A stretch of DNA of 32,000 nt from Candidatus Methanoperedens sp. (GCA_041494705.1 JBGQBI010000002.1:1-32000); one strand, 5' to 3'. Numbered from the stretch's first letter, positions 9,180 through 21,572 are shown. Notes: a model not told the origin generated them from the sequence alone. Program-made: numbers and translations.

Positions 9180-9320
9180 TGGAAAATCGGGAGAATGCTT
9201 AAACGATCTGTCAAAATTTGAAATTATGGAAATTTACGAACTATGCTATAACATCTCCCGATTTGCTAAATTATTGGTCATAGTAACCCTCATATATAAC
9301 TTATTACCCATAGTAATATA

Positions 9321-13433: not shown

Positions 13434-13506
13434 AGCCCGGTAGTGTAGCGGTCAATCATGCGGGACTCTGGATCCTGCGACCAAGGTTCGAATCCTTGCC
13501 GGGCTA
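13434..13506 (+). tRNA. tRNA-Gln (anticodon CUG), no encoded CCA
   Basis: The acceptor stem AGCCCGG pairs with CCGGGCT and the discriminator is A. The T arm is CAAGG-TTCGAAT-CCTTG. The anticodon arm is CGGGA-CTCTGGA-TCCTG, giving CUG at positions 34-36. The overall sequence resembles archaeal tRNA-Gln. A T-rich tract follows. Confidence 0.85.
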
Positions 13507-14877: not shown

Positions 14878-15963
14878 TTATTGAGTCGTTTCTATGCGTT
14901 TTAATTCCTGCGTGGAATAAGAAGAATAATTTGCAATTCTTGGCGCAATATAAAATAATTTCTCATCATGTTTTTTAATTGTTCCAAATATAGTTTTTTC
15001 GGATAAACCGTTTGTAACTTCAGCATGCAATAAATAATTTCCAGACTGCAAAGTAGAAGTATTAACGTTTAAATACCAGATTCCTTCATACTTTTTTCCA
15101 ATCATTAATTTGTTTCTTGATAAATTTTCTTGGGTATTGTTTATTGTGATATCATCGATGTACTGAAAAATATTGCCATCGCTGGCATTCATTTTGTATA
15201 AATTTATATAATTTGCAGAATACGCAATCCCTGTTTCTTTTATTTTGAACGTTTGAATACCAGTATTTGTATTTGTTTGTGAGAATTCTTCTATCGAAAA
15301 AGTGCCTGTTAATAAATATAAAGGAGCTGTTAGTAAAAGTAAAACTAATAGTAAAACTAGCATTGATATTAAAAAAATAACCAGTGGACTAAAGTTAAGA
15401 ATCATATATCTTTCAAAATCGAATTTTAAGAGAGTCTTAACCTTGATTTGACTTATTTTCGACCTGATATTTCTTAGTGGTTCGATTAAATTTATTTCGG
15501 TGAGACGGATGTAGATAATTATAATAATCGTAGAGGCAAATATCCAATAAAAATTGAATATATAATTATAATTATTAATTTTACTTGGATCCTTAAACAT
15601 CTCATGAGATAAAAGGGTAAAAATCGAAAAAACAATCCACAAGATAGGTAGTATAAAAATAGATTTAAATAATTTCTGTGTAATGTTTTTTATTTGTTTA
15701 CTTTCTGATTCTGTGGAGAGTAAATACCCTTTTAGTATTAGAAACAAAAAAACCATTGAAAATTCAAGTAATAATAACATTACTAAAAAATAAACCGTAA
15801 GTTGAAGAAAATCACCTAAAACAATCACATTATTATTAAAATAATCAATCGTTTTCAATAAAAAAGCTGATACTCCAGCTAATAGTGTTATTGCAAGGGT
15901 TATCTCTTTAAAATCACGAGAATTTTGCCGCTTCTCTTTTTGCAACTCTTCCTCAATTCCCAA
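14878..15963 (-). CDS. Polytopic membrane protein with a C-terminal beta-rich extracytoplasmic domain, unknown function
   Basis: 361 aa ORF in a strongly AT-rich islet (about 14706-16060). It has about six hydrophobic segments, then a roughly 140-aa Asn/Thr-rich soluble tail. I recognise no family. Confidence 0.5.
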   Translation of the reverse strand: MGIEEELQKEKRQNSRDFKEITLAITLLAGVSAFLLKTIDYFNNNVIVLGDFLQLTVYFLVMLLLLEFSMVFLFLILKGYLLSTESESKQIKNITQKLFKSIFILPILWIVFSIFTLLSHEMFKDPSKINNYNYIFNFYWIFASTIIIIIYIRLTEINLIEPLRNIRSKISQIKVKTLLKFDFERYMILNFSPLVIFLISMLVLLLVLLLLTAPLYLLTGTFSIEEFSQTNTNTGIQTFKIKETGIAYSANYINLYKMNASDGNIFQYIDDITINNTQENLSRNKLMIGKKYEGIWYLNVNTSTLQSGNYLLHAEVTNGLSEKTIFGTIKKHDEKLFYIAPRIANYSSYSTQELKRIETTQ

Positions 15964-16063
15964 GTTAAAGTTACTCCTCGAATATTTTTAAATACAAATA
16001 GTTGCGTTTAATATTTAATAGTTTCTTGATATTATATACAATTAGATTTAACTTACTATAGAA

Positions 16064-17047
16064 ATGTTTTTGCTACCAACTCTCCTTAAAATTATCATGC
16101 CCAACCAAAAGCCCATCAATATCGGTCATCTTTCAACCGTATATCATACCTCATTTATCCTGATGGGCACAGACTGGCTTGAAAAAGCAGGCATCCATGC
16201 GAACTGGAAACTCTTTGCCTCAGGTCCCGACATCGTTAAAGCCTTCGCAAACGAGGAAATCGACATCGGGTATATCGGCCTGCCTCCCGCAATTATCGGC
16301 ATCGATAGGGGGGTTCCGATTATCTGCGTCGCGGGTGGGCATGTGGAAGGAACCGTGCTGATTGCCCGGAATGAATACAGGACTCTTGATGATTCGGGGA
16401 GCTTGAATGCTGCGCTTTCGCAATTTGAAGGAAAAACAATCGGCTCCCCTCCGAAAGGCTCAATCCACGATGTCATCATCAACAATGCCATAAATGAAGC
16501 AAAGCTCAATATCGAGGTTAAGAACTTTGCCTGGACAGACTTTGTTCTTGAGGCGCTGGTGGATGGCGATATCGATGCAGCGGTCGGAACGCCGTCTCTT
16601 GCTGTTGCAGCGGTGCGTGCCTGTGGCGCAAAAATAATCATCCCGCCGCACGCCCTGTGGCCCGATAATCCAAGCTACGGTATAGTTATCAGGAAGGAGC
16701 TGATGCAATCTCCTGAAGTGATTCTGGACTTCCTTAAACTTCATGAAAAAGCAAGTAATTTCATCAGGGCAAAACCAAAGAATGCAGCAAAAATTGTTTC
16801 AAAACTCACAGGGATTGTGGATGAAGAGTTTGTGATGAGCGCTTACATGGTCTCCCCGAAATATTGCGCTTCCCTGTCCAACGAGTTCGTTCACTCGACA
16901 ATGGCTTTTGTGCCTGTGCTCCACAGGTTAAAATACATTTCAAGAGAGTTGTCAGTAAACGAGATATTTGAGTTCGGTTTTATTAATAATATCCATAAAG
17001 AACCGCCGCATTATAATATGAATATCCGTTCAGCTCAACCTTTATAG
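16064..17047 (+). CDS. NMT1/THI5-like (SsuA/TauA-type) substrate-binding-fold protein; no obvious signal peptide
   Basis: 327 aa. The alternative start ATG at 16097 gives MPNQKPINIGHLSTVYH. The motifs INIGHL...DIGYIGLPPAI...VAGGH resemble the periplasmic-binding-protein type 2 fold of nitrate/sulfonate/taurine binding proteins. Confidence 0.55.
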   Translation: MFLLPTLLKIIMPNQKPINIGHLSTVYHTSFILMGTDWLEKAGIHANWKLFASGPDIVKAFANEEIDIGYIGLPPAIIGIDRGVPIICVAGGHVEGTVLIARNEYRTLDDSGSLNAALSQFEGKTIGSPPKGSIHDVIINNAINEAKLNIEVKNFAWTDFVLEALVDGDIDAAVGTPSLAVAAVRACGAKIIIPPHALWPDNPSYGIVIRKELMQSPEVILDFLKLHEKASNFIRAKPKNAAKIVSKLTGIVDEEFVMSAYMVSPKYCASLSNEFVHSTMAFVPVLHRLKYISRELSVNEIFEFGFINNIHKEPPHYNMNIRSAQPL

Positions 17048-17922
17048 AATGGTTCTCTTTTATCCATTGCAAGCTTCATTAATTCCATGATTTCTTGCGG
17101 CTCTTTATTATTCACATCCACCAGGTTGTCATTCCTGAAAAGACAGGGTTTCAATCTTCCGTCCGAAGTGACGCGAAGCCTGTTGCAATTGGCACAGAAA
17201 TGCGAATTATCAATAGGCCTGACAAGCTCTACTTCGACTCCTCCGATATGATATTTTTTTCTTCTATGCATAGCCCGCTCTTCAATTTTTGAGGCTCTGG
17301 ATTCAAGGAATTTTTCAATTTCATTTATATCAACCTGATACTGCGCTGTTCCCTGGAAATCCATTAATTCTATCAATTGCAGGATAACCTTCCCTTCAAA
17401 CTTCCTGATAAAATCCATCATTTTCAGGATTTCACTGTCGTTTATCCCTTTGAGAAGCACCATATTTAGTTTTACAGGCGTCATGCCCCTATCAACGGCG
17501 GCATCAATTCCATCAAGTACGTTACTAATATCCCCTCCTGTGATTTTCCTGTATTGTTCAGGAGAAAGAGATGGAAGACTGATATTGATGCGGTCAAGCC
17601 CGCTATCTGCAAGGCTTTTCGCCCTTTGCGCAAGAAGAGTTCCGTTGGTTGTGGCCGAGATATCCTTGAGCTTTGGAAGCGATTTGATGATTTCCTCAAA
17701 ATCAGTCCTGAGTAAAGGTTCCCCGCCAGAGAACTTTACCCTATCCACCCCGAAAGCCTGAGAAGCCCTGACTATATTTCCAATAGTCCTGCAGGTCATC
17801 TCATTATTTATTTCCCGCGTTTCACCTTCATGATGGCAATAGAGGCATTTCAGGTTGCAACGGTTGGTAAGGGATATCCTGAGACTCCTTATCGTCCTTC
17901 CATATGCGTCTGTTAACTGCAT
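17035..17922 (-). CDS. moaA: GTP 3',8-cyclase (molybdenum cofactor biosynthesis protein A), radical SAM
   Basis: 295 aa. It has LRISLTNRCNLKCLYCH (CX3CX2C), FSGGEPLL and a C-terminal cluster region CANCNRLRVTSDGRLKPCL. The size is typical of archaeal MoaA. Confidence 0.85.
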   Translation of the reverse strand: MQLTDAYGRTIRSLRISLTNRCNLKCLYCHHEGETREINNEMTCRTIGNIVRASQAFGVDRVKFSGGEPLLRTDFEEIIKSLPKLKDISATTNGTLLAQRAKSLADSGLDRINISLPSLSPEQYRKITGGDISNVLDGIDAAVDRGMTPVKLNMVLLKGINDSEILKMMDFIRKFEGKVILQLIELMDFQGTAQYQVDINEIEKFLESRASKIEERAMHRRKKYHIGGVEVELVRPIDNSHFCANCNRLRVTSDGRLKPCLFRNDNLVDVNNKEPQEIMELMKLAMDKREPFYKG

Positions 17923-17934
17923 TGTTGCCAGGGA

Positions 17935-18141
17935 TTAGCCTCCTGTCACAACCCTCAGGATTTCCACATTGTCGGGCGTCACCACTTCATCCAGCGGTAC
18001 AGGAGCGCCTTTCCGGAATACCAGGACGATTTCTGGATTTATGTTTAGGGATTTTAGCATCCCTTCATACGTTGAATCCGATGAAAGTTCCAGGACTTGC
18101 TCTTTGACCCCCCCGGAAAGAATTTTTACTTTTACCTTCAC
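17935..18141 (-). CDS. MoaD/ThiS-family ubiquitin-fold small sulfur carrier (SAMP-like), C-terminal GG
   Basis: 68 aa with a GTG start. It ends ...EILRVVTGG-stop and sits directly upstream of moaA. Confidence 0.7.
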   Translation of the reverse strand: MKVKVKILSGGVKEQVLELSSDSTYEGMLKSLNINPEIVLVFRKGAPVPLDEVVTPDNVEILRVVTGG

Positions 18142-18282: not shown

Positions 18283-18526
18283 GGTTTTACCTCGCATCTT
18301 TTGAGTTTAAAATCGTAGTAGGTTAAGAATCACTGCTCTGTTCCTGATGTATACTTAGCTTCTGTGTATTATTAACTTTGTGCATGGTATCAACCTAGTT
18401 TTTAAAATTTGAATAGCTTCACCCACTCTTGCCACTGGATTTTAGAAATAACCAGAATTCAAAGCACATACTAAGCGCCGCGGAGTGCAATGGGCAGTTA
18501 CTTTTCCGATGATGAGCATTTCAAAT

Positions 18527-19723
18527 TTACATCTGTGAACAGATTGATTGCTTGAGCATGGAAAAAGTATGGTCTTGTAAACTAGGTTGAAAAATATCGT
18601 GGTTGTCCACGTAGTTTGATGCTAAACAACCTCCCCGAAAGTCTTCAGCAATTCCTTTAGCCTCACAAGCCACACGCAACTGCGAGCTATTAACCAACTC
18701 AAACCGGTTTTTAAGGTGGGTCAAGCCATATCGTACATCACCTAACTTCATTATAAGCTCTTTATTATTCAAAGCCAAAATCTTTGAACACGGTGATGCC
18801 TCTCCATTTACAGCAACTGATATTGAGTTACGACCTGCCTGGCATCCAAAAAATGGCTCCGTGAGTTTTTCATCAAATTCATTAATTCGCAAATCATGGC
18901 GCGGTGTTTGTTTGTACCAATGGAATAATTTCTTTAACTGTTTGCTATAAGAATCTATACTTTCCATAGACCACTCAATACCCGTTGCATAACCAATAAT
19001 AAATTGGTTGATGCCCACTTCATAAAGTCCTAGGACATTTTCAAAGAGATCGGAGGCTGTTGATGGCATAACAGTAATTTTTACACCAACCCATGGTTGT
19101 ACTCTTTTCAATATTTCAAACGCTCTCATTACTTGTTTGAAGGTGCCACTACCATGCTTATCTATTCTGAATCTGTTGTGTGTAGACTCGAGCCCATCGA
19201 CACTTAAAAGAACTTTGACTTTATGCTGAGCAAAGTAATTGACCATATAATCATTTAGCAGAACTCCATTGGTGGTGATATTGAAATCAATAGATTTTCC
19301 GAAAAGTGAAGCCTTTTTTTCAGCATGTTCTGTTACAGATCGAACCGCAGGGAAATTTAACAGAGGCTCGCCACCGAAATGAGTTACATATAATTGAGGT
19401 TCGCCCTGGGCGTAGTCAAAAAGAAGATCTATCGCTGCTTTAGCTGTTTCCAGAGGCATCTTTCGATGCCCATGAAAGGTTTTTTCGAAACAGTAGCTAC
19501 ATGCCAGATTGCAACCCTCCGTATGAATGATTTCTAATTTTGTCAATGGAGGAAACAGGGATCCATTTAACTGCGCTACAGTCTGATATATAAGGTTTCT
19601 AACATTTTCTGAAGATAAGTTCAGGCAATTTTCAAGATGAGAATGGAGCAGACCAATATCTAGAGAATCTGATAATAAATACCCATAGACATCATCAATT
19701 AAATTTTTATGCAATGTTATCAT
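18527..19723 (-). CDS. Radical SAM enzyme with a SPASM/twitch-like C-terminal auxiliary Fe-S domain (anSME-family peptide maturase-like)
   Basis: 398 aa. It has the CX3CX2C motif GCNLACSYCFEK (C71/C75/C78) and GGEPLL. The C-terminal sequence C-x12-G-x4-C (FFGCQAGRNSISVAVNGEASPC) matches the first SPASM/twitch signature. Further Cys residues occur at VACEAK, RGGCLAS and SICSQM. About 60 aa precede the radical SAM core. Confidence 0.8.
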   Translation of the reverse strand: MITLHKNLIDDVYGYLLSDSLDIGLLHSHLENCLNLSSENVRNLIYQTVAQLNGSLFPPLTKLEIIHTEGCNLACSYCFEKTFHGHRKMPLETAKAAIDLLFDYAQGEPQLYVTHFGGEPLLNFPAVRSVTEHAEKKASLFGKSIDFNITTNGVLLNDYMVNYFAQHKVKVLLSVDGLESTHNRFRIDKHGSGTFKQVMRAFEILKRVQPWVGVKITVMPSTASDLFENVLGLYEVGINQFIIGYATGIEWSMESIDSYSKQLKKLFHWYKQTPRHDLRINEFDEKLTEPFFGCQAGRNSISVAVNGEASPCSKILALNNKELIMKLGDVRYGLTHLKNRFELVNSSQLRVACEAKGIAEDFRGGCLASNYVDNHDIFQPSLQDHTFSMLKQSICSQM

Positions 19724-19908
19724 TCTTTTGATATATGAGTGTGTCTGAATATTTTCTCAAGGATAAGATACCAAATTGCGATGTTATAGGATTGTTTAAC
19801 AAAAACGCTACTAATTCATAGCTTTATCATAACGGCATGTATCATATTTTCAAATAAGATAAGCGTTTAGGGTTGGGTTCAAATATCCATTTCTTGCGCA
19901 ATTTTTTT

Positions 19909-20142
19909 CTATCCCATGAACTTAATTGTGCAGTCGAATTGTCCCGAACATGATACTGTACCAGTACACGAGTAGTCACCACACTTAAAACCTGTCCCCG
20001 TGCAAGCATAAGGCATAGGCCTTGGAGACACCACCGCCTTCTCACTAGCAGCTAGAGATTGAGATATTCTTGTAAGAATCTCATTTGCTATATAATTTGA
20101 CAGGCTTTTCAACTCCTCTTGAGACAGTTTCTCGATTACCAT
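19909..20142 (-). CDS. Candidate RiPP precursor peptide: a roughly 44-aa Cys-free leader plus a Cys-rich core of about 33 aa
   Basis: 77 aa: MVIEKLSQEELKSLSNYIANEILTRISQSLAASEKAVVSPRPMP-YACTGTGFKCGDYSCTGTVSCSGQFDCTIKFMG. All five Cys (47, 54, 59, 65, 71) are in the last 31 residues. The gene has its own SD and TATA box and is co-oriented 185 nt upstream of the radical SAM gene. Confidence 0.7.
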   Translation of the reverse strand: MVIEKLSQEELKSLSNYIANEILTRISQSLAASEKAVVSPRPMPYACTGTGFKCGDYSCTGTVSCSGQFDCTIKFMG

Positions 20143-20145
20143 AAT

Positions 20146-20184
20146 TTTCCTCCCAGAATATCTTTAATTCTGTTTCTATATAAA
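20146..20184 (-). promoter_or_regulatory. Promoter/RBS of the precursor peptide gene (TATA box TTTATATA plus SD GGGAGG)
   Basis: The minus strand reads ...AATGTTTATATAGAAACAGAATTAAAGATATTCTGGGAGGAAAATT-ATG. The TATA-like box is at 20177-20184, about 35-40 nt upstream of the ATG. The SD is at 20149-20154, 6 nt upstream. Confidence 0.5.
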
Positions 20185-20214: not shown

Positions 20215-21324
20215 TTAAAATAATTCCAAACTCTTAAGTTCATATTTCCTGCTCCCGCATCCTATTTTTTCAGCAGCTTCGATATGTAACCACGGGTTCA
20301 CGCCCCATACATTGTATATCGATTTTCCATCCGGTTTCATTCTCCCGTTAATTAAATCGATTGTTGCAGAATCAATTGCCACCGGGTCTTTTCCAGCCAG
20401 GATACCTATATCTTCAACAAAGCGCTCACCCGAAAAATTGAAGCAATCGCAGCCCGGCGTGAGGTCGTAGACCCAGTTAATATATCCAATCCGCCCATTC
20501 AGCGCTTTTATAGGGCCAAGCGCGGCTTCACCCAGCCTCTTTTGCATTTTATCTGTCGCATCCGGAGGAGGAATTATCGCCTCCTGCTGGCATGCATCAG
20601 CGCAGGACAACTCACCGCAGCATTTTGTATGGTCGATTTCAGGCGGCGTTATAGCGCCCCACGGGCATACTTCCACGCAATCCCCGCACTGTATGCATTT
20701 TTCAGGGTCGATGGAGGGCTTGCCCACTTCATGTACCTTTATCTTTCCTGCCCTGTCAAGACATCCCATGCCCAGGTGCTTTACCGCACCGCCGAATCCT
20801 GAAGCAGGATGCCCTTTTCCATGGGAAATGATAATCATCGAATCGGCTTCCGCGATGGCAGAGGCAACCGTAATGCTGCCAAGCGCTTCCCCATTAATCT
20901 CTATTTCCTTGCCATCGCCGCCTCTTAAACCGTCAGCCACAATAAAAGGGGCGTTCATGCTCGCATGTGTAAAACCGTTCATTGAAGCGCCTTTTATAAG
21001 ATTCGGCGCGTTCAGTTTCATTCCTTTGTATAACGTCGTGGTGTCGGTCACAAACGGTATTCCTCCGGCTTCCATCACAAGGTCAACCACAGTTCTTGCA
21101 ATTACAGGTCTTATATGAGTCGTGTTCCCATATTCCCCCGGATGTATTTTTATTGCTACAATATCACCTTTTTTGACAGGTGAAATATACGGAAAAATTC
21201 TCTTTATCTGTTCAGGCTGGTTATCTTCAGGCTTTGTGATTTTCGCATCTTTGAATAATATATTACTCAGGAATATCCCTCCACATCTCTTTTGATTTGT
21301 GATATCATAGTATTTAAACTGCAT
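20215..21324 (-). CDS. DUF362-family protein with an inserted 2x[4Fe-4S] ferredoxin-type domain
   Basis: It has the DUF362-like motif GDIVAIKIHPGEYGNTTHIRP, then HGKGHP...GMGC, and a ferredoxin motif CIQCGDCVEVCPWGAI plus further Cys clusters (CCGELSCADAC). The ORF is open to 21408. I prefer the ATG at 21324 (MQFKYYD...) because it leaves a TATA-containing divergent promoter free. The start is uncertain. Confidence 0.65.
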   Translation of the reverse strand: MQFKYYDITNQKRCGGIFLSNILFKDAKITKPEDNQPEQIKRIFPYISPVKKGDIVAIKIHPGEYGNTTHIRPVIARTVVDLVMEAGGIPFVTDTTTLYKGMKLNAPNLIKGASMNGFTHASMNAPFIVADGLRGGDGKEIEINGEALGSITVASAIAEADSMIIISHGKGHPASGFGGAVKHLGMGCLDRAGKIKVHEVGKPSIDPEKCIQCGDCVEVCPWGAITPPEIDHTKCCGELSCADACQQEAIIPPPDATDKMQKRLGEAALGPIKALNGRIGYINWVYDLTPGCDCFNFSGERFVEDIGILAGKDPVAIDSATIDLINGRMKPDGKSIYNVWGVNPWLHIEAAEKIGCGSRKYELKSLELF

Positions 21325-21338
21325 ACTATTTAAACCAC

Positions 21339-21352
21339 AATATTTATATAAT
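21339..21352. promoter_or_regulatory. AT-rich TATA-like element (AATATTTATATAAT) in a divergent intergenic region
   Basis: It is positioned about 20-30 nt from both the ATG at 21324 (minus) and the ATG at 21381 (plus). This is consistent with leaderless or short-leader archaeal transcripts in both directions. Confidence 0.3.
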
Positions 21353-21380
21353 CTCTCGTTAAATATATGACTAATCAAAA

Positions 21381-21572
21381 ATGGGAGATGGGTTAATGTT
21401 AGAGACATCCAAAGAAAGAGTAAAACTGCTCAAAGCCGGTATCCCAGGCAAGAGAATAGAAACAATGTATATAAAATTCAATAATTTCAAGATAGTCCAG
21501 AAACCTGTACTTTTTGAGATGGTTGAAACCGATTCAAACAATATTGAAAATTATAACAGCCAAAAGCTGTGA
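21381..21572 (+). CDS. Hypothetical small protein (63 aa)
   Basis: The only support is an open frame with an ATG downstream of a TATA-like box. I recognise no family and the composition is AT-rich. Confidence 0.25.
   Translation: MGDGLMLETSKERVKLLKAGIPGKRIETMYIKFNNFKIVQKPVLFEMVETDSNNIENYNSQKL

Follow-up and report, generated by a model that had tools for sequence, protein, structure and literature searches.

A conserved two-gene cassette of a cysteine-rich modular peptide and a radical SAM enzyme in Candidatus Methanoperedens and diverse bacteria, probably a ranthipeptide-like system

The window analyzed here, a stretch of 32 000 nucleotides from Candidatus Methanoperedens sp. (GCA_041494705.1 JBGQBI010000002.1:1-32000), contains what is probably a minimal two-gene RiPP-type cassette, with a ranthipeptide-like precursor in which the cysteines would be crosslinked in turn by a single radical SAM enzyme encoded next to it. 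The assignment of the peptide to ranthipeptide-like precursors stems from the combination of a Cys-rich modular core, a helical leader, an obligate partner enzyme resembling PapB and CteB, and the unstructured state predicted for the core. The two genes represent a real and conserved precursor/enzyme subfamily that is so far unnamed; this subfamily belongs within the known world of radical SAM/SPASM thioether peptides, so that the ‘new precursor class' proposed in a sequence-only reading of the same DNA was an overstatement.

Features of the cassette and its immediate surroundings in the window
Feature	Positions	Strand	Basis	Remarks
DUF362 and 4Fe-4S ferredoxin-domain gene	20215..21408	minus	Pfam DUF362 2e-40	upstream of the peptide gene
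TTTATATA, perfect match to the archaeal TATA-box consensus	20177..20184	minus	read from sequence	~38 nt upstream of the peptide ATG
GGGAGG, Shine-Dalgarno-like	20149..20154	minus	read from sequence	6 nt before the peptide ATG
Precursor peptide gene	19909..20142	minus	ORF listing	77 aa and stop codon
Leader, residues 1-44	20011..20142	minus		conserved motif and non-conserved P40-P44 linker
Core, residues Y45-G77	19912..20010	minus		five aromatic/Val-x-Cys units, then terminal K-F-x-G
Peptide-enzyme spacer	19724..19908	minus	read from sequence	185 nt, with T-runs CTTATTTG and GCGTTTTTG
Radical SAM maturase	18527..19723	minus	NCBIfam, Pfam, PDB, AlphaFold2, Foldseek	398 aa

Translation of the peptide ORF yields MVIEKLSQEELKSLSNYIANEILTRISQSLAASEKAVVSPRPMPYACTGTGFKCGDYSCTGTVSCSGQFDCTIKFMG, and the segment that the sequence-only reading had designated as the core corresponds exactly to codons Y45-G77 on the minus strand. 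The layout described in that reading is found in the translation as well: the five core cysteines are in positions 47, 54, 59, 65 and 71, with a 7-5-6-6 spacing, each is preceded at position -2 by an aromatic or branched residue (Y, F, Y, V and F) and followed immediately by a small one (T, G, T, S and T), and Gly occupies position +2 in three of the five units (CTG, CTG and CSG). The identical 77-aa protein is encoded on 7 contigs, but the copies from other samples are 100% identical in DNA and therefore uninformative with respect to selection. By its match to archaeal promoters, TTTATATA at 20184-20177 is the putative promoter of the peptide gene, and the 185-nt spacer that precedes the enzyme ATG contains no Shine-Dalgarno site. 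Partial termination within this spacer could, we infer, leave the precursor in excess of the enzyme.

The pattern is conserved and does not arise by chance. When the window peptide was searched exhaustively with phmmer against 1.8 billion representative proteins (E<=1e-3), 29 matches were obtained, ~22 of which are small peptides of 69-94 amino acids that share the window core; a word-indexed protein search had retrieved only the peptide itself. All five cysteines are retained in ~30 homologous peptides, most of these with the 7-5-6-6 spacing, and in an alignment of 21 sequences, C47, C59, C65 and C71 are invariant whereas C54, G49, F52, Y57 and F75 are at least 90% conserved. The core consensus derived from this alignment is G-[YWF]-x-C-T-G-x-x-F-x-C-G-x-Y-x-C-x-G-x-V-x-C-x-G-x-F-x-C-T-[VI]-K-F-x-G, and across the family, the -2 position of the fourth site is occupied by Val, His, Asp or Phe. 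When the 33-aa core of the window peptide alone was shuffled 200000 times, F, Y, W or V fell at -2 of all five cysteines in 3 cases. Over 37 precursors, an aromatic residue (F, Y or W) is found at -2 of 147 of the 186 cysteines, compared with a shuffle mean of 27.7 (sd 4.6, maximum 47, 20000 shuffles), and over 38 precursors, of 150 of the 190. Thus, both the cysteines and the aromatic positions are conserved in the homologs, the refuting condition named in the sequence-only reading, a lack of conserved Cys positions, does not hold, and the observation made from the single sequence stands.

The window peptide has no NCBIfam match at E<=1, no Pfam or NCBIfam model covers the family, its members are labeled ‘hypothetical protein' in all of the database records examined, including each of the 14 matches in a profile search with the 21-peptide alignment, and a full-text literature search for the core sequence and related terms turned up nothing relevant. 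A degenerate DNA pattern for the core hit 53 metagenome loci, among which six are true family members and the rest are mostly TG-rich low-complexity DNA. Below threshold, 7 of the 21 family peptides match the NCBIfam model of heterocycloanthracin/sonorensin (best E 0.0022) and 2 of the 21 match that of the BufA2 copper-binding RiPP (1e-4), probably on account of composition. A TOMM or bufferin assignment was rejected: these matches are weak, and there is no YcaO- or MNIO-like large ORF in the window map, three window proteins having been scanned against family libraries.

The N-terminal part of the family peptides carries the motif S-x-E-E-L-x-x-L-x-x-x-I-A-x-E-I-L, and AlphaFold2 predicts a helix at residues 8-34 of the window peptide, with block-mean pLDDT values of 93 and 90 over residues 11-30; for the core, the pLDDT is ~50, so that an autonomous fold is not predicted. 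Of the amphipathic leader helix proposed earlier, then, the helix is supported by the prediction, and its hydrophobic moment is unexceptional, being equalled by 30% of shuffles. The PRPMP segment is indeed present at residues 40-44, but it is not conserved in homologs and so does not mark a conserved junction of leader and core. An enzyme-first search uncovered additional precursors with the leader S-P-E-E-L-x-x-[IL]-A-x-x-V-A-x-E-[VM]-L but with differing cores, namely those of Bacillus toyonensis (4 Cys, CGSSASFDCRVFDCTNSFSC), Streptosporangium (4 Cys, FKCGDYECTGGEFTCSKFRC), a member of Bryobacteraceae (3 Cys, FTCPETFACSKSYSC), a planctomycete (9 Cys) and Methanoperedens BLZ2 (5 Cys, CFRCGFMGSYSCDQDPFECTTTFRC). 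These relatives have anything from 3 to 9 units, whereas the leader motif and the enzyme family are constant. One conserved leader, 3-9 short units and one enzyme make up the layout that iterative processing predicts, and the iterative recognition by one enzyme suggested in the sequence-only reading would fit this range of unit numbers.

Two variants depart from this architecture. In one locus (L109 9536-11068, on the same contig as L094 6324-7856, from an Aphanocapsa lilacina metagenome-assembled genome) and also in P0142, leader and core make up the last ~75 residues of a protein of 510 aa that weakly matches PQQ_2/SBBP beta-propellers; in L109, this fusion gene is located downstream, not upstream, of the radical SAM gene, and the core has two additional terminal cysteines (…GCMSYSGLCYGCILY). 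In an Acidobacteriaceae metagenome-assembled genome (L006 2689-3719), three precursor genes are arrayed in tandem upstream of the gene for an enzyme of 40% identity, a large glycosyltransferase-like ORF follows the enzyme gene, and in each precursor a twin-arginine-like signal (…ARRKLFQQLAILAGAGALA…) replaces the usual helical leader, which suggests export of this particular variant.

The enzyme has a CxxxCxxC motif (C71/C75/C78) that is invariant in 104 homologs, matches the Pfam Radical_SAM domain (PF04055, 4e-18) and, in an AlphaFold2 model (mean pLDDT 94.9), adopts a radical SAM core fold that Foldseek matches to CteB and anSME. Its closest curated families are thioether synthases. The top NCBIfam match is PapB (NF047865; E 5.3e-57, 193.5 bits against a cut-off of 340, with the full 330-position model aligned), followed by QhpD (1.1e-43, 149.6 bits, cut-off 453), the nif11 and CcpM maturase models in ranks three and four, and then the SCIFF maturase (2.8e-38, 132 bits, cut-off 425); the matches to cyclophane formers are far weaker (1e-24 to 1e-18). 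Because the enzyme falls below every curated family cut-off, it is assigned to an unnamed clade. The nearest solved structure is CteB (5wgg; E 1.6e-32 in the PDB sequence search and TM 0.75 in Foldseek). Of the six CteB residues defined by proximity to the catalytic site (PMC10288494), four (F112, F152, T186 and S210) are identical and invariant here, as F79, F116, T150 and S174, whereas positions 5 and 6 of the profile differ (S313/K314 in place of H363/Q364).

The two terminal domains are more distinctive. The N-terminal domain (residues 2-56) is predicted by AlphaFold2 to consist of three helices (2-16, 23-34 and 38-56) without strands, and there is no Pfam match to PqqD/RRE at E<=1, so that the enzyme has no recognizable RRE. 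At the other end, the auxiliary domain of the window enzyme has cysteines C294, C312, C353, C366 and C395. The Pfam SPASM match is below threshold (15.7 bits against a cut-off of 21.5). Of the canonical motif (Cx9-15Gx4C ... Cx2Cx5Cx3C ... C), the first half is present (C294-x12-G307-x4-C312), the Cx2Cx5Cx3C block is replaced, and most relatives have C346-x6-C353-x12-C366 plus C395-x2-C, that is, seven auxiliary cysteines with a spacing unlike that of the canonical seven-Cys SPASM domain. The window enzyme itself retains five of these seven: it has Ser346 where 87% of the family has Cys, and ends in …SICSQM, without the final Cys that 71% of the relatives carry. Given this substitution and this loss, the second auxiliary cluster of the window enzyme may be incomplete or impaired, which has to be kept in mind in experiments with this peptide/enzyme pair. 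P0003, its nearest relative among the aligned proteins (71% identity), is likewise without the final Cys, and P0002 (72% identity) has this Cys displaced by three residues toward the C-terminus.

The pairing of a precursor-like peptide gene with a radical SAM gene, which the sequence-only reading presupposed, is genuine and recurs across the family. A homolog of the window enzyme, 49-63% identical, directly adjoins the family peptide at every locus with enough flanking DNA, including the metagenomic loci L084-L090, loci L113, L115, L127, L147 and L148, and those of Kitasatospora (L150, 3697-3978 and 4001-5245) and Pelotomaculum (L092), whereas the other neighbors differ from locus to locus and the neighborhoods are otherwise unrelated. 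The hosts of the cassette span archaea and five or more phyla of bacteria, and include Methanoperedens, Nitrososphaeraceae, Kitasatospora, Streptosporangium, Bacillus, Pelotomaculum, Acidobacteriota, one cyanobacterium and one planctomycete. The same core is present in Kitasatospora and Pelotomaculum, and variant cores in Bacillus, Streptosporangium, Acidobacteriota, Bryobacteraceae, the cyanobacterium and the planctomycete, which rules out a peculiarity of archaea. A related-loci search of genome contigs with the enzyme alignment yielded at least three close loci, the matches listed being mostly ordinary SCIFF-type maturases.

The spread of the cassette is patchy: the Bacillus enzyme is 54% identical to that of the window archaeon, the Kitasatospora core is near-identical to the window core, and some copies of the cassette adjoin transposase or integrase genes. 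Together, these features suggest dissemination by horizontal transfer. The G+C content of the cassette in the window (18500-20000), 0.35-0.40, is somewhat lower than that of its neighbors (0.45-0.52), and at window positions 15000-16000, G+C drops to 0.26-0.28, which is compatible with a foreign origin. In Methanoperedens sp. BLZ2 (L005 3714-5215), there is a divergent cassette, with a different core and an enzyme 57% identical to that of the window, next to a heterodisulfide-reductase-like gene, a nucleotidyltransferase gene and a pyruvate:ferredoxin oxidoreductase gene, unlike the neighborhood in the window. From this divergence and the different surroundings, the cassette was probably acquired more than once in the Methanoperedens lineage.

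Some of the bacterial and metagenomic loci have features of their own. In Bacillus toyonensis (L091 2633-4335 and 9497-11218), integrase/resolvase genes lie on one side of the cassette and a Y-family polymerase/YolD pair on the other, and there are Pycsar-like genes (cyclase and PycTM) close by, surroundings that look like a mobile or defense island. At locus L084, where the peptide gene is intact and a transposase fragment and an OLD-family nuclease gene adjoin, the radical SAM gene contains a single in-frame TAG (9190-9192, …FDE*TNATFFGCQ…) and is otherwise intact to its end; the call of this gene ends at the same 293-residue length in L084, L085 and L086, the TAG being read directly from the L084 sequence. 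A pseudogene, amber read-through or pyrrolysine could account for this codon. A role in defense, for which the Pycsar-type genes near the Bacillus cassette and the OLD-type gene at L084 could be invoked, was discarded, because PADLOC reports only generic similarity to viperin.

As in ranthipeptides, a Cys-rich precursor lies here beside a radical SAM enzyme similar to QhpD, CteB and PapB, and the adjacency is conserved. Freyrasin (PapA/PapB), a ranthipeptide of Paenibacillus, resembles the present system in that PapB is the top curated match of the window enzyme, in that the core consists of short, evenly spaced Cys units served by one enzyme, and in that the commonest Cys-to-aromatic offset here, +4, equals the ring size of C-x3-D. 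However, the window enzyme remains under the PapB cut-off, has a helical N-terminal domain and a changed spacing of auxiliary-cluster cysteines, and the core contains no C-x3-Asp, the conserved partner here being aromatic rather than acidic. The acidic residues of the window core are only two, D56 and D70, neither at +4 of a Cys (the +4 residues are G, S, V, F and F), so that the acceptor type of PapB and QhpD is absent. QhpC/QhpD, the system of the gamma subunit of quinohemoprotein amine dehydrogenase, provides the second-best enzyme match and shows that a small polypeptide laced with thioethers can be a component of the cell rather than a secreted antibiotic; nevertheless, the score is well short of the QhpD cut-off, the acceptors in QhpC are Asp and Glu, and no genes for other subunits of this dehydrogenase were found among the neighbors examined.

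The SCIFF (thermocellin) system, CteA/CteB or ScfA/ScfB, contributes the closest solved structure and shares four of the six proximity residues, but where CteB has CDSCWAKFYCSGGC, the window enzyme has C353-EAKGIAEDFRGG-C366, with the second and third cysteines lost. None of the 21 family peptides matches the SCIFF model (TIGR03973 for the peptide, TIGR03974 for the maturase), and the sequence-only reading was right to set the peptide apart from SCIFF, considering that it lacks NCBIfam matches and that the score of the enzyme is far under the cut-off for the maturase. SCIFF is a two-gene cassette that is not known to have a conserved protease or exporter, or a function, and the present cassette is similarly limited to two genes, with no conserved protease or exporter among the loci compared. 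SCIFF is largely clostridial, whereas the present family is scattered over archaea and many bacterial phyla. In NxxcA/NxxcB, the Asn of an NxxC motif serves as the acceptor for the Cys three residues later. This is a precedent for the layout that an aromatic-x-Cys arrangement would need, a short ring with the acceptor just before Cys, although the acceptor there is Asn at -3, compared with the aromatic residue at -2 here. The NxxcA/NxxcB ranthipeptide is named in PMC11851443 and PMC10288494.

In the scheme that we favor, the helical leader would dock on the enzyme, probably via the three-helix N-terminal domain, and the disordered core would present five units, each consisting of one Cys and one aromatic residue (or Val, His or Asp). 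Cleavage of SAM would generate the 5'-deoxyadenosyl radical, hydrogen would be abstracted from a carbon of the acceptor residue, and an auxiliary Fe-S cluster would hold the Cys, whose sulfur would then be joined to this carbon in a thioether; repeated unit by unit, the reaction would produce a string of small rings. The likeliest acceptor would be the benzylic beta-carbon of the conserved aromatic residue, which would be the crosslink partner because it is the sole constant of every inter-Cys segment. The Thr, Asp, Ser and Gly residues that had been put forward as candidate acceptors between the cysteines are not conserved across the wider family, only the aromatic residue being kept there. 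On chemical grounds, the residues found at the fourth site, Val, His, Asp and Phe, would all bear a relatively activated C-beta hydrogen, and one of them, Asp, is the residue to which PapB attaches sulfur.

Two registers of these rings can be envisaged, one in which the aromatic residue two positions before Cys would close a three-residue ring, and another in which the aromatic residue three to five positions after Cys would form a ring of the C-x3-acceptor type made by PapB. The aromatic residue that precedes 150 of the 190 cysteines always keeps the exact distance of -2. An aromatic residue also occurs between a Cys and the next one in 158 of 190 cases, with an offset of +4 in 80, +3 in 37 and +5 in 35. 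The last Cys, with no later Cys, is followed by an aromatic residue in 37 of the 38 precursors, and in six of the 38, the first Cys lacks an aromatic residue at -2. By these counts, aromatic-x-Cys and Cys-x3-aromatic would fit about equally; since Y45, the first, and F75, the last aromatic residue, are both conserved in the narrow family, either register leaves one of them unexplained. With no protease or exporter kept, the product may remain attached to its leader and intracellular, or may depend on host factors. A more ambitious version of the scheme, which we regard as possible but doubtful, holds that Cys sulfur is bonded to the benzylic beta-carbon of Phe, Tyr or Trp (or its equivalent in His, Val or Asp), a crosslink that would be new to RiPPs, installed 3-9 times by a clade that reads the helical leader through a three-helix domain and not an RRE, and that the outcome is a leader-retaining intracellular peptide spread by inter-domain transfer, the first product of radical SAM modification of a peptide to be connected with an anaerobic methane-oxidizing archaeon.

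Other accounts of the cassette have to be weighed against crosslinking through side chains. It appears unlikely that the enzyme makes sactionine bonds, that is, links Cys sulfur to the alpha-carbon of the acceptor, which would make the peptide a sactipeptide in which the aromatic residues only bind substrate. Bonds to the alpha-carbon demand no particular side chain, and there is a precedent in the sactisynthases GggB and QmpB, which are ranthisynthase-like and make non-hairpin rings (PMC10288494). Nonetheless, the top matches of the window enzyme form non-alpha thioethers, by score it is not of the sactisynthase type (RumMC, 80 bits against a cut-off of 720; SkfB, 3.5e-07 in the PDB search), and the cysteines are spread evenly over the core, without the classical hairpin of a Cys half and an acceptor half. 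Subtilosin, in which Phe accepts sulfur at its alpha-carbon, is a further precedent for this bond, but sactionine formation would not explain why residues with an activated C-beta hydrogen are so strictly conserved.

The aromatic-x-Cys units could also be the target of non-thioether chemistry, either a triceptide-like C-C cyclophane to the beta-carbon of the +2 residue, here Cys, or an anSME-like oxidation of Cys, an explanation to which we assign quite a low probability. The triceptides (three-residue cyclophanes made by XncB, YhhB, GrrM, FxsB or ChlB) likewise combine repeated aromatic-X-X motifs with a SPASM-type enzyme, 150 of the 190 cysteines are embedded in the matching aromatic1-X2-X3 form, similarity of the window enzyme to YhhB (2.7e-24) and anSME (2.9e-26) is detectable in NCBIfam and to ChlB and anSME (TM 0.65-0.70) in Foldseek, and some of the enzyme homologs are automatically annotated as anaerobic sulfatase-maturating enzymes. 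These cyclophane and anSME matches are, however, at least 30 orders of magnitude weaker than that to PapB, with only 66-86 bits against cut-offs of 310-445 for YhhB, GrrM, AmcB and FxsB, there is no sulfatase motif C-x-P-x-R, and the invariance of Cys in every unit points to sulfur chemistry; moreover, Cys is not known to occur at the third position of triceptide motifs. Finally, it is highly improbable that the peptide remains unmodified, as a small Cys-rich protein that, for instance, binds a metal or an Fe-S cluster or contains disulfides, and that the enzyme next to it acts on another substrate. The nearby Fe-S genes in the window (DUF362/ferredoxin, 2x[4Fe-4S] ferredoxin and MoaA) and the weak matches of two family members to the BufA2 metallophore model (1e-4) would accord with such a protein, but the same enzyme family adjoins the peptide in two domains of life while the other neighbors change, the number of cysteines is odd, AlphaFold2 predicts no confident fold for the core, and the layout of leader and modular core is typical of modified peptides.

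Experimentally validated archaeal RiPPs are limited to haloarchaeal lanthipeptides, archaeal ranthipeptide and sactipeptide clusters having been only predicted (survey in PMC12144867). With its two genes, the cassette of this Methanoperedens-type archaeon is a compact target, open to direct co-expression, and the bacterial versions, in Kitasatospora, Bacillus and Pelotomaculum, belong to genera that can be cultured and to named genome assemblies. Because no RRE is detectable in the enzyme, the family may have gone unnoticed in RRE-based compendia of radical SAM systems. A Cys-rich peptide beside a SPASM-type enzyme is what specialists would expect; the conserved aromatic partner, the helical domain with its putative role in recognition and the archaeal host make the cassette a worthwhile and easily tested target. 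If the aromatic residue is indeed the partner of each Cys, peptide stapling, with a toolbox now centered on PapB, would gain a new type of thioether and a short, portable recognition unit. As with SCIFF, the cassette raises the question of the intracellular role of crosslinked peptides that carry a leader and lack an exporter.

The DUF362 gene, considered as a third component, was rejected because it is not conserved at other cassette loci: it lies beside the cassette only in the window and in the identical copy L001, was not found in this position in the 53 pattern-hit loci or in 13 related loci, and is probably a neighbor and not a part of the system. Immediately downstream of the enzyme gene, there are genes for a 68-aa ubiquitin-like protein of the MoaD/ThiS type that ends in GG (17935-18141) and for MoaA (17035-17922). 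These are molybdopterin genes; MoaA, itself a radical SAM enzyme and the second one here, has no relation to the cassette. The digeranylgeranylglycerophospholipid reductase encoded in the window falls into a cluster, at 90% identity or more, with proteins of Candidatus Methanoperedens, which assigns the window to a Methanoperedens-type archaeon. The sole Rfam match in the window is one tRNA gene, at 13434-13506.
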